A DNA stretch of 64,000 bases from Simkaniaceae bacterium. GTDB lineage: Bacteria; Chlamydiota; Chlamydiia; Chlamydiales; JAJFMI01. The stretch spans positions 12,423 to 76,422 of the forward strand of contig JBBDIZ010000024.1 of NCBI GenBank assembly GCA_040880145.1, given 5' to 3'. Shown here piece by piece: positions 36,222 through 39,133 of the stretch. Below the pieces are notes generated by a model. That model searched no databases and was not told the origin of the DNA. It worked only from the letters and a program-made list of their open reading frames with translations. Both the position numbers and the translations under genes were made by a program. Each line of letters begins with the position of its first letter. The first letter of the stretch is position 1.

Positions 36222-36394
36222 CTATAGTCGATTAAATCTTAAATGATAAAAATGGACTCAGCGAGACAAAGCTAAATAAAGCCGCAGGGCATAGGCCGAC
36301 GAAGCCTTGCCCAAGTGGGCGAGATGAGGAGAAGGATCCATTTAGCAAAGTCGTAGCAAGTTCATTTTTATCATTTAAAATTTAATCGACTATA
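36222..36394 (+). mobile_element. MITE-like palindromic element, copy 1 (~173 bp)
   Basis: ~35-bp terminal inverted repeats tatagtcgattaaatcttaaatgataaaaatggac / gttcatttttatcatttaaaatttaatcgactata. There is no ORF. A second copy lies at 38971-39133. Confidence 0.6.
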
Positions 36395-36620
36395 ACAGAA
36401 CAAACGATGCAGAAAATTGCAGCTAATATAGTACAAAAGTTTAAAGAAGGAGAGGCGAAAAATGCACTAAAAGCTTTTTTTTTAGCTCCTGAGCCTTGTT
36501 CAGAAAACTGAATTTACTATCATCCTCTTCTTGAGAAAGATTATAATTATTTATAAAACTATTTTTTTCAATTATATTTGAATTGTTCATCTTTCAACCT
36601 AATTAATTATTAAGATAAAG

Positions 36621-37193
36621 TTACACACTCAAGCAAAGTTGCACACTCAAGATTACGGTAAAAATACAGAATAAAGCTAGAAAAAAGAAACCGGCTAGAA
36701 ACAAGTAAATAGAGGGAAAGACGATACAAAAAATCATAAATGTAAAATAACAAACCAAAGAGAGAATCATAAATAATACAGTATAAACGACGAAATCACA
36801 GGTAGAGCATAAAGATTCTTCTGCTTCTTCTATGGATTCGGCATATGTGAACTTGTAACCTTCGTTTAGATAAGCCTTTTTAGCTTGTTCGATTTGACTC
36901 TTCTCAAAAAGCTCTGTAACTTTAAATGTTGCTTTAGAAGGGTTCTGAAAAGAAGACAAAAGAAACTTTTTTTGAAACTTAAGCGGATAGGTTAAATCAT
37001 CGCTGTTGTTATCAGCATCATTTCTTACAAAAAAAAGAATATCTTTATTTTTTATTTTAAAATTATTTACAGAAAAAGAGAGATCAGGATCAATTTCAGG
37101 AGAATTATAGGATCGGAAAAGATCTTCAACCTCTAAAAAAAGGTTTTTATTAACGACATAATCAGAGGTAATAGGATATAGAATTGATTTCAT
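36621..37193 (-). CDS. hypothetical membrane protein with a C-terminal ~60-aa hydrophobic domain (Inc-like)
   Basis: 190 aa with a soluble N-terminal 130 aa, then VVYTVLFMILSLVCYFTFMIFCIVFPSIYLFLAGFFFLALFCIFTVILSV. Confidence 0.45.
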   Translation of the reverse strand: MKSILYPITSDYVVNKNLFLEVEDLFRSYNSPEIDPDLSFSVNNFKIKNKDILFFVRNDADNNSDDLTYPLKFQKKFLLSSFQNPSKATFKVTELFEKSQIEQAKKAYLNEGYKFTYAESIEEAEESLCSTCDFVVYTVLFMILSLVCYFTFMIFCIVFPSIYLFLAGFFFLALFCIFTVILSVQLCLSV

Positions 37194-37252
37194 GTTAATA
37201 ATTATTATGCAATATCTTGATAAAAAAATCGAGAAAAAAATAATTACCCCTA

Positions 37253-37651
37253 TTATTGGCGATCTAAAATTTCTTCTTCAGTGAGGAGGGGGGCATCCTT
37301 GTGGTTGATTCCTTCGCAAGACTTGGCTGCTTCATCCCAATTTTTTTGGCTTTTAAGGATAGAGGGCCAAAAGGGAAATGTGCGGCATTGCTTGGGGCGG
37401 GCATCATAAAGGGAGCATTTTGTGCTTTTTAGGAAAATGCAGGCATACGTTGCGGGATCCTCAAGGAGTGAAATTTTCTTTCCTACTTGGCGGGTGTAGC
37501 GGCGTAAAAAAGCCTCTTCGCTTAGATTTAAATGTTTGGATAGAAGTGAGATATCTTCTTCTGTCAGCCAGACATATCCCGGAGCCCCTGTGCAGCAAGC
37601 GCCGCAGGCAGTGCAGCCGAAGTGCAGGCCTTCTTTATACCATGAGCTCAA
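37253..37651 (-). CDS. YkgJ-family (CxxCxxCC) cysteine-cluster protein
   Basis: 132 aa with CTACGACC near the N-terminus and the downstream C...C..Y..RP..C..FP pattern (CIFLKSTKCSLYDARPKQCRTFP). Confidence 0.75.
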   Translation of the reverse strand: MSSWYKEGLHFGCTACGACCTGAPGYVWLTEEDISLLSKHLNLSEEAFLRRYTRQVGKKISLLEDPATYACIFLKSTKCSLYDARPKQCRTFPFWPSILKSQKNWDEAAKSCEGINHKDAPLLTEEEILDRQ

Positions 37652-38528
37652 AACTTGCGCTCCTGTCTAATAACCAGCTTGCCGGGCTGCGCTCTTTGGA
37701 TGTGAATGTCTGAACCAAGAGTTGGGTTTTTGAAAGAGTTAAGAGGTTCCATGAACCATTATGGAGCTTCGAAATGCTTCCTGGATCGAGGATGATAGGG
37801 AGGTGATTAGAGCGGAGATCTGCGCAAATTTGTCTATGAGTATGGCCATGAAGGTAGAGTTGAATTCGTAAATCACCTCGAATGCGTTTCTCTAATAAAT
37901 CGCCTCCTTCCATATTTCGTTTTTTTTTATCATTAGCGAAAAAGGGAAAGTGGTTCAAAAGAATAATTTTGGCATCTTTTGGAACATCGGCTAGTACTTT
38001 TTTGAGTTTTTCATCGATTTCAGGGGAGTATTTTCCATTGGAAAGAAAGAGAGAGGTCGAGAGTGTCGTGTCTAATGCGATAATCCAAAACCCTTCTTTA
38101 AACTCAAAGGCGGCTACTTTATCTTTTTCTAAAGAAAACCGATGGCGCTGTTGAGTTGGAAAATCATTTTTAAAATAGTGGTAAAAGCGCCGTGTTCGAT
38201 CGGAAAATCGGGTGTAATGGTCATGGTTCCCAGGAATTAGGAAGGTGTGGATGCCTCTTTTTTTGACTTCATCGATAAAAATACGCGCTAGTTGATACTC
38301 GCTTTTTTGCGATGTAGTCGTTAAGTCCCCTGTAATCAAGAGGTCAGTCACTCCTTGATTTTTCAAAAAATCCGGGAGCATTTTGACTTTCTCATTGATG
38401 TAGAGACGCCCTCTTTTTAAGAGCAGATTGGCAGAGCCAAGCCACCGCTTTGAAAAAAACTGAAGAGGGCTAAAACAAAATTTTGAAAAATGCACATCTG
38501 AGATATGCGCTATCCGAATCTCACTCAT
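37635..38528 (-). CDS. calcineurin-like metallophosphoesterase
   Basis: 297 aa with the ordered motifs HISDVH, GDLTT, GNHD, LNHFP and HGHTH. Confidence 0.8.
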   Translation of the reverse strand: MSEIRIAHISDVHFSKFCFSPLQFFSKRWLGSANLLLKRGRLYINEKVKMLPDFLKNQGVTDLLITGDLTTTSQKSEYQLARIFIDEVKKRGIHTFLIPGNHDHYTRFSDRTRRFYHYFKNDFPTQQRHRFSLEKDKVAAFEFKEGFWIIALDTTLSTSLFLSNGKYSPEIDEKLKKVLADVPKDAKIILLNHFPFFANDKKKRNMEGGDLLEKRIRGDLRIQLYLHGHTHRQICADLRSNHLPIILDPGSISKLHNGSWNLLTLSKTQLLVQTFTSKERSPASWLLDRSASFELMV

Positions 38529-38558
38529 TTGAGAAGCAGTATAGCAAAATCGGCGATA

Positions 38559-38951
38559 TTATGCGCTTTTTTTCTGATGGTCAAGCTTATGCTGCAATTT
38601 GTGGGATCGATCTCTCGATTGTATTTTTACGACTTCATTCCACTGTTTCCCTTCGGGATGGATGCCTGCAGGCCCTGTCGCATAATCGATTTCAATACCG
38701 GGCTGTTGGCGTTTTGACCGTTTTTTCTTTCCTTTAGCCTTCTTTTGTTGCATGTTTTTTTCGAGAGAATGAAGCTTCTGGCTCAGCTTCTCTTCTTTCT
38801 TTAATTTCTCTTTATCTAAATTTTTATTATGAAAATCTTTTTTTAGATTTTCTAAAGAGAATGTTTCGCTATCTTTTTGATAGTCAAGGCTTTGGCTTTT
38901 ACGAACCATTTTGCGTCGAACTTGATTTCGACGATGGGGCGAGTTCTTCAT
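38559..38951 (-). CDS. hypothetical Lys/Gln-rich basic protein
   Basis: 130-aa ORF of low complexity (KKAKGKKKRSKRQQ). Support comes only from ORF length and its position in a same-strand gene string. Confidence 0.35.
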   Translation of the reverse strand: MKNSPHRRNQVRRKMVRKSQSLDYQKDSETFSLENLKKDFHNKNLDKEKLKKEEKLSQKLHSLEKNMQQKKAKGKKKRSKRQQPGIEIDYATGPAGIHPEGKQWNEVVKIQSRDRSHKLQHKLDHQKKSA

Positions 38952-38970
38952 AATAAACCTCCGTAAAGTA

Positions 38971-39133
38971 CTATAGTCGATTGAATCTTAAATGATAAAA
39001 ATGGACTTGCTGTGACTTTGCTAAATTGATCCTTCTCCTCACCTTGCCCACTCGGGCAAGGCTTCGTCGGTCGGAGCCCTGCGGTTCAATTTAGCTTTGT
39101 CTCGCTGAGTCCATTTTTATCATTTAAGATTCA
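38971..39133 (-). mobile_element. MITE-like palindromic element, copy 2 (inverted relative to copy 1)
   Basis: The reverse complement aligns with 36222-36394 over its full length at roughly 90% identity by eye, including both termini. Confidence 0.6.

Follow-up and report, generated by a model that had tools for sequence, protein, structure and literature searches.

Two copies of a palindromic sequence of about 170 nucleotides (nt), in inverted orientation, bracket four genes in a 64,000-nt stretch of a Simkaniaceae bacterium genome (GenBank assembly GCA_040880145.1, contig JBBDIZ010000024.1, positions 12,423 to 76,422 of the forward strand); this whole stretch is called the window here, and coordinates refer to it. 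The arrangement leads one to ask whether the repeats and the genes between them form a cassette that moved, or could invert, as a unit, as a preliminary description of the DNA had suggested, or whether the repeats arrived separately around genes that were already there. We consider it likely that the locus reflects two independent cut-and-paste insertions of a nonautonomous IS630-type element, mobilized in trans by a transposase like that of the insertion sequence (IS) ISFtu1, which would recognize the terminal ~25 nt. For the host genome this would be an ordinary outcome, with two small parasitic insertions into spacers and no mobile gene cassette, and it sets right an inviting error, that of taking any genes framed by inverted repeats for a composite transposon.

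The two copies of the proposed MITE (miniature inverted-repeat transposable element) and their terminal repeats are as follows (L numbers denote retrieved loci).

36223..36394, plus strand: MITE copy 1, 172 nt including a flanking TA on each side
36223..36257, plus strand: left terminal inverted repeat of copy 1, 35 nt, 0 mismatches to the consensus
36360..36394, minus strand: right terminal inverted repeat of copy 1, 2 mismatches to the 35-mer; its first 25 nt equal the IS630-family end at L017 and L030
38972..39143, minus strand: MITE copy 2, 172 nt, in the orientation opposite to copy 1
38972..39006, plus strand: terminal inverted repeat of copy 2, perfect 35-mer
39109..39143, minus strand: terminal inverted repeat of copy 2, perfect 35-mer

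A repeat finder returned 36223-36394 and 38972-39143 as the arms of an inverted repeat, 90% complementary with 2577 nt between them. Compared base by base, the copies are identical at 155 of 172 positions, with a longest identical run of 43 nt, which bears out the inverted, ~90% identical copies of the preliminary description; its coordinates needed adjustment, as it began copy 1 at 36222, 1 nt early, and ended copy 2 at 39133, 10 nt short of 39143. Its other structural observations held up as well. The terminal repeat that it had put at ~35 bp, TATAGTCGATTRAATCTTAAATGATAAAAATGGAC, occurs four times in the window, once per end per copy with 0 to 2 mismatches, against an expectation of 0.00 in shuffled sequence. 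The internal self-complementarity is that of a palindrome in each copy, with arms of 55 and 61 nt, and CTTGCCCGAGTGGGCAAG is found in copy 2, on the minus strand. Both copies start and finish in TATA, and an open reading frame (ORF) scan found none of at least 50 amino acids (aa) inside either. No Rfam family matched either copy at gathering or permissive thresholds, and a sensitive BLAST search of the window found no copies or fragments beyond the two. As RNA, copy 1 is predicted to fold at about -73 kcal/mol and copy 2 at -92.5 kcal/mol, compared to -33.7 +/- 3.4 for shuffles (z = -17.1 for copy 2).

IS630/Tc1-mariner transposases insert at TA and duplicate it, and for that reason we read the element as a 168-nt noncoding palindrome with terminal inverted repeats of ~26 to 35 nt, flanked by a TA that would have been duplicated on insertion. 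If the TAs are the target duplication, copy 1 proper is 36225-36392. It lies in a 502-nt spacer with a 190-aa ORF on one side and a 106-aa ORF on the other, while copy 2 is separated by 7 nt from the stop codon of the GT9 gene upstream and by 20 nt from the ATG of a Lys-rich ORF that follows. Among the 17 differences between the copies are two mirror-symmetric pairs, 12/161 and 56/117, that keep the palindrome, so that each copy retains its own matched ends and stem through them. These pairs suggest that the copies descended from different master copies and not from a recent copying of one by the other.

What ties the element to IS630 is its ends. A scan of one genome per species (the window's own genome not included) with a 20-base core of the terminal repeat gave 21 loci, and a metagenome scan with this core gave 49 more. 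The terminal 25 nt at the right end of copy 1 are identical, 25 of 25, to element ends in L017, L010, L018, L019, L004, and L030. In a Legionellaceae metagenome-assembled genome (MAG) and a gammaproteobacterial MAG, the matching ends lie ~115 nt from contig termini, and inward of them is the C terminus of a transposase (...SPDLNPIEKCWANLKDKIKKI...AFQSII*), whose stop codon falls within the terminal repeat. The 156-aa transposase fragment of L030 reaches 105 bits, above the curated cutoff of 100, on the NCBIfam model NF033545 ("IS630 family transposase") and 99 bits on Pfam PF13358, DDE_3, with catalytic residues spaced, by eye, as DD35E; L030 is not a full IS, being cut off by an IS256-like insertion. 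Thus, the search that the preliminary description had proposed, for an IS630/Tc1-type transposase elsewhere with matching ends, leads to Legionellales MAGs. Across ~110 fetched loci, the interior of the element had no match at E <= 1e-8, and sharing was limited to the terminal ~25 nt.

The same ends define the mobile unit. In 115 distinct ends from 71 loci, the base adjoining AGTCG is T in 114; the two bases outside that T are T in 108 and A in 103, and the next five positions are random. Because conservation stops just past the TA, the mobile unit is sharply bounded at the flanking TA. Small elements with both ends, 73 to 245 nt apart, are present in Chlamydiota MAGs (a Waddlia-labelled MAG, a "Chlamydiae bacterium," and Parachlamydiaceae) and also in Legionellales MAGs (Tatlockia and Legionella). 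One metagenomic genome, Ga0153954 (L023-L071; contigs up to 281 kb, 40% GC), has dozens of them in size classes of 73, 98, 112-119, 163, and 235-236 nt, and ~0.4 Mb sampled from it held no IS630 transposase. Judging from the GC content and from a block of five dcw genes, 36 to 51% identical to those of the window and in synteny with them, Ga0153954 is probably a member of the Chlamydiota. In some cases its "elements" are reduced to about two terminal repeats head to head (L025:13975-14009, a 35-nt TATAGTCGATTAAATTATAAATTTAATCGACTATA; L029:~4176; L049:~4267); these minimal forms could be deletion derivatives or products of excision and repair.

Not all matches were assigned to this family. Those in Bacilli, Cytophagia, Gastranaerophilales, and Mariniphaga MAGs (L005, L011, L012, L014, and L020) had no TA flank or partner end and were taken as chance or distant matches. 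Legionella antarctica L022 has a 69-aa transposase remnant only, beside an IS3-type element, and no matching end. A scan of viral contigs gave a single match, a coincidence within coding sequence with no TA flank or partner end, and the paper on the Coxiella QMITE elements mentions no matching terminal sequence. The IS630-matching ends, together with small, same-ended elements in other chlamydial and Legionellales genomes, support the reading of the window's elements as IS630-derived MITEs, as do the TA flanks, the small size, and the lack of an ORF. The IS630/mariner kinship that had been considered from the TATA termini is supported by the identical terminal 25 nt and by the TA boundary over the 115 ends.

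Autonomous relatives show what the mobilizing element might look like. The L030 fragment has more than 1,300 homologues, which several sources label IS630 or "ISFtu1" transposase. Full-length copies embedded in contigs (L081, L083-L090, L091-L097, L100-L103, and L105-L109) are 925 to 943 nt long, with an orfA of 114 to 119 aa (HTH_Tnp_IS630) that overlaps an orfB of 192 to 198 aa (DDE_3); every orfA/orfB overlap that was checked has an A8 run. ISFtu1 itself has the same two-ORF design and uses programmed frameshifting (PMC4412822). The ends of the full-length copies are variants of TATAG(T/C)NNATTNAANTTTAAATGA, identical to the window's end at 18 to 22 of 25 positions, and where one IS occurs at different sites, the flanking repeat in common is the outer TA and nothing longer. 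Full-length relatives occur in Legionella. The best match to the IS on an annotated plasmid is chlamydial (pS13 of Neochlamydia sp. S13, 52% identity), and Rhabdochlamydia oedothoracis is also listed; both have elements of 930 to 938 nt with the same design and TATAGT... ends, so the IS lineage is present in Chlamydiota besides Legionellales. An ISFtu1-like IS is the probable source of the transposase for the window's element. In the 64-kb window, tblastn with IS630 orfA and orfB gave nothing better than E about 1, in keeping with the earlier statement that no transposase is present there, and no IS630 transposase turned up in ~0.5 Mb of sequence from the loci that surround the small elements of chlamydiae.

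Elements of the IS630 type are often nested with other mobile DNA. In L030:111-2028, an IS256-like transposase is inserted in the IS; in L100:1-3393, a group II intron reverse transcriptase and a Tn5-like transposase abut an IS630-type element; and in L. antarctica L022, the IS3-type element adjoins the IS630-type remnant.

We imagine that the element, having no transposase of its own, would be excised and pasted by one supplied in trans from the ISFtu1-like subgroup of IS630, whose members, ~930 nt long, would encode a helix-turn-helix orfA and a DDE orfB joined by ribosomal frameshifting at A8. This transposase, presumably residing elsewhere, would recognize the terminal ~25 nt and insert at TA, and the partner IS of the window's element would be ~930 nt long with TATAGTCGATT... 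ends. One insertion, that of copy 2, would have been at a TA within the 29 nt that separate a GT9 glycosyltransferase gene from a conserved small ORF. The other, copy 1, would have gone into a variable spacer further downstream, with the enclosed genes already present. In full-length IS copies, the "TGAT" type of end is the mark of the right side; the element has this type at both its ends, making a fold-back of one IS end a plausible origin for the element.

The second part of this proposal, that the enclosed genes were there first, can be examined by synteny. The four genes are as follows.

38559..38951, minus strand: Lys-rich ORF, 130 aa, no Pfam match; a conserved chlamydial gene, in its ancestral position and not cargo
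37635..38528, minus strand: metallophosphoesterase (PF00149); by synteny, ancestral in place
37253..37651, minus strand: CxxCxxCC (YkgJ-type) protein (PF03692); by synteny, ancestral in place
36621..37193, minus strand: 190-aa hydrophobic-tailed ORF, no Pfam match; its slot varies among relatives

Of the labels first given to these genes, the CxxCxxCC protein and the metallophosphoesterase stand; the 190-aa ORF, called Inc-like, and the Lys-rich ORF have no Pfam match. The metallophosphoesterase is the same, residue for residue, as an NCBI protein assigned to a "Simkaniaceae bacterium" MAG. Three relatives at about 50% protein identity, L077/L078, Candidatus Algichlamydia (L079), and a Chlamydiales MAG (L080), do not have the elements. 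Window and relatives alike have, on a single strand, the order methylase, GroEL, GT9, GT9, small ORF, a variable slot, metallophosphoesterase, CxxCxxCC protein, a second variable slot, PGM, and short-chain dehydrogenase. Of the four "cassette" genes, all but that for the 190-aa ORF keep the same place, order, and strand in all three relatives, and the Lys-rich ORF is 64% identical to the same-position ORF in L077. The slot of the 190-aa ORF is empty in relatives or filled by EamA genes.

Removal of copy 2 in silico, with one TA kept, leaves TAA-TAAACAA-TA-GTACTTTACGGAGGTTTATT-ATG, a spacer of 29 nt where the relatives have 25, 30, and 8 nt. In this reconstruction, the window's ribosome-binding site, GGAGGTTTATTATG, aligns with GGAGGTTAATTATG of a relative. 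The predicted preinsertion site, on the minus strand, would be ...TAATAAACAA-TA-GTACTTTACGGAGG... with a single TA. Because of the synteny in three relatives and the normal operon spacer that results when copy 2 is removed, we conclude from comparative sequence that the enclosed genes did not arrive with the repeats and that the current orientation is ancestral.

Certain features of the neighborhood are worth recording in their own right. The metallophosphoesterase and CxxCxxCC genes (37253-38528) overlap by 17 nt, and in many other Chlamydiota (P0015, P0018, P0031, and others) they are fused into a protein of ~419 aa; the fusion implies a functional partnership between the two proteins. At 39151-40921 are two paralogous GT9 (heptosyltransferase-like) genes with a 56-nt overlap, and the pair is next to GroEL in all relatives examined. 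A tandem 17-mer at 36617-36651, AAAGTTACACACTCAAG followed one base on by AAAGTTGCACACTCAAG, overlaps the stop codon of the 190-aa ORF.

How well do other explanations fare? If the two inverted copies acted together, they might move the four genes as a unit or flip the segment by homologous recombination. Certainly, the copies are inverted and 90% identical, and their identical run of 43 nt is long enough in principle for RecA-type recombination; inversion by this route is physically possible but unsupported. Short-read assemblies break at both copies, and those contigs give no independent confirmation of orientation: the Logan contigs from SRR27977663 and SRR27977659, which match the window at 100% identity, break off in the repeats after exactly 30 nt. 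Such ends are the behavior of a k=31 assembler at repeated k-mers; they confirm the sequence and are uninformative as to orientation. The gene order and strand in relatives that have no elements, the conservation of the Lys-rich ORF at its position, and the metallophosphoesterase and CxxCxxCC genes, adjacent or fused across Chlamydiota, all argue against a cassette, and inversion would uncouple genes that are now co-oriented. Since L077/L078, L079, and L080 have three of the four genes in synteny, these are not cargo; movement as a composite transposon is largely refuted, and we regard a composite or invertible cassette as very improbable. We give similarly little credence to a local inverted duplication, the fallback of the preliminary description, in which an accident of replication or recombination would have copied the sequence nearby with no transposition. 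There are only two copies in the window, 2.6 kb apart, and no transposase, as such an accident would have it. However, on each of the four sides the similarity breaks off exactly at the TATA terminus, and the flanks are unrelated; precise ends with TA in unrelated sequence disfavor it, as does the membership of these termini in a mobile family found in many genomes of two phyla. The 10% divergence, with its symmetric changes at 12/161 and 56/117, again suggests different master copies.

A different possibility is that the host has retained the element as a regulatory hairpin, a promoter, RNase III processing site, or attenuator between operon genes, whatever its past mobility. Copy 2 lies where the relatives have a tight operon spacer (8 to 30 nt), and it is almost certainly transcribed or promoter bearing. 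Its stem is extremely stable (-92.5 kcal/mol, z = -17), pairing is kept through two symmetric, compensatory differences that set the copies apart, and an outward motif of the form TTATCA-N17-TATAGT is present at both of its ends:

38970..38998, minus strand: hypothetical outward sigma-70-like motif TTATCA-N17-TATAGT, 9/12 match, facing the Lys-rich ORF
39117..39145, plus strand: hypothetical mirror-image outward promoter-like motif TTATCA-N17-TATATT, at the other end of copy 2

The element tip makes up the -10 hexamer of both motifs, at 38970..38998 together with one flanking base. There is also precedent, in that Correia elements of Neisseria have documented promoters and RNase III sites (PMC10969869). 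However, promoter-like matches over the region, 12 against 9.6 +/- 3.4 expected, are not above chance; the -10 hexamers of copy 1 (TATAGG and TATAAC) look poorer by eye, Rfam has no matching family, and any fold-back MITE is expected to be palindromic, functional or not. We therefore think retention as a regulatory hairpin unlikely. Some effect on the downstream operon can still be envisioned. Because copy 2 splits a junction that is a tight operon spacer in relatives, one might speculate either that transcription runs through it, so that the mRNA contains a perfect stem of 36 bp, or that it supplies a new start. By analogy, copy 2 could conceivably give the downstream operon an outward promoter or a long double-stranded RNA stem, as Correia elements, which supply promoters and RNase III sites, do in Neisseria (PMC10969869 and PMC3184786, both reviews).

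Two insertions of an IS630-derived MITE remain our preferred explanation, and several points weigh against it. Reading the TA as duplicated, when it could be the final two bases of the end, rests on the known behavior of IS630-family transposases, as the relatives, at ~50% protein identity, have spacers that cannot be aligned. Only two copies lie within the 64-kb window, and no transposase was found in it or in the ~0.5 Mb around the chlamydial small elements. The exact 25/25 matches are to truncated or contig-end IS copies from another phylum, and an intact IS with both such ends was not recovered. The interior matches nothing among the retrieved loci, which leaves a deletion derivative and a one-end fold-back both as candidates. 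Finally, with 17 differing positions, neither copy is a very recent copy of the other.

Other palindromic sequences occur in the window. At 732-1113 there are inverted blocks of hexamer repeats, (CTGCCC/TTGCCC)n and (GGGCAA/GGGCAG)n, with 83-nt arms that are 81% complementary and 216 nt apart; the motif TTGCCC...GGGCAA of these blocks also makes up the stem at the center of the 172-nt element. At 35725-35775, in the interval from the 106-aa ORF to PGM, is a perfect palindrome with 23-nt arms (ATATACCGAAAATGATTCAAAAT, 5 nt, and the reverse complement), at which a Logan contig also breaks. A nested palindrome at 60546-60710 (~161 nt at 60548-60708) has termini of the same form as the one at 35725-35775, (AT)ATACCGAAA...TTTCGGTAT(AT), and the two may represent a second small palindromic element family in this host genome.

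These findings document MITEs in environmental chlamydiae. We found no earlier description of them in the open-access literature, which is weak evidence of absence. They also bring out one terminal-repeat type common to chlamydial MITEs, Legionellales MITEs, ISFtu1-like IS, and the Correia elements of Neisseria, which offers a candidate enzyme family for Correia mobilization and a marker of gene flow among intracellular bacteria.

The assignment of the window's element follows the same logic as that of two better-known families, the RUP elements of Streptococcus pneumoniae (with IS630-Spn1) and ERIC/MITEEc1, in which the ends match an IS630-family element and insertion is at TA. RUP and ERIC/MITEEc1 were placed with IS630 by their ends and TA insertion (PMC2229807; PMC11602168). 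They differ from the window's element in end sequence, host, and interior. In addition, the partner IS of RUP resides in the same genome, whereas the ends that match the window's element are known from other genomes. The ISFtu1-like IS of Francisella, Legionella, Piscirickettsia, and chlamydial plasmids have in common with the window's element the terminal repeat type TATAG(T/C)NNATT...AAATGA and the TA flanks, with 25/25 ends in one Legionellales sublineage. These IS are autonomous, with 925 to 943 nt, orfA and orfB, and an A8 frameshift site, whereas the window's element is noncoding and has nothing in common with them past the first ~25 nt.

By end sequence, the nearest named family is that of the Correia elements (CREE or NEMIS) of Neisseria. 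They are of the same size class (about 105 to 157 nt) and have inverted ends and TA flanks; like the window's element, they are intergenic near gene starts and form a hairpin in the transcript, which for the window's element is a prediction. The published Correia terminus is TATAGTGGATTAAATTTAAATCAG, or as a pattern TATAG[CT]GGATTAAATTTAAATCAGGAC (PMC2649163). The window's terminus, TATAGTCGATTAAATTTTAAATGAT, agrees with it at 21 of 25 positions with one gap, and each end of copy 1 has 2 to 3 mismatches to the first 20 nt of Correia (chance expectation, 0.04). The ends diverge past about 22 nt and the interiors are unrelated. Where Snyder et al. (2009) allowed at most 3 mismatches in a 26- to 27-nt repeat, the window's element has 8 over the 27-nt pattern (ungapped, by eye), and the published core (CCGGTACGG... 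/ ...TCAGGACAA) is absent from it. The hosts belong to different phyla, a chlamydia and Neisseria, and CREE have been called unique to Neisseria (Roberts et al., 2016; PMC5039591). Promoter, IHF, and RNase III functions are properties of Correia, whereas the window's element is known from sequence alone. On these comparisons we class the latter as Correia-like and not as a Correia element.

Correia was previously listed as an IS630-derived MITE (PMC2817692), so a link between Correia and IS630 at the family level is not new. Snyder et al. (2009; PMC2649163) stated that the mechanism by which Correia is mobilized was undetermined. What may be new here is that ends of this type match the ISFtu1-like branch specifically and that MITEs of chlamydiae and Legionellales have them. 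One can tentatively propose, with more doubt than confidence, that the ISFtu1-like branch of IS630 is the autonomous lineage behind a cross-phylum "Correia-type" MITE superfamily that includes the Neisseria, Legionellales, and chlamydial families. If so, the near-identical ends would reflect the specificity of one transposase, spread by horizontal transfer, for example among bacteria that share amoebal hosts, and the enzyme that moves Correia elements could be tested for directly with an ISFtu1-like transposase.

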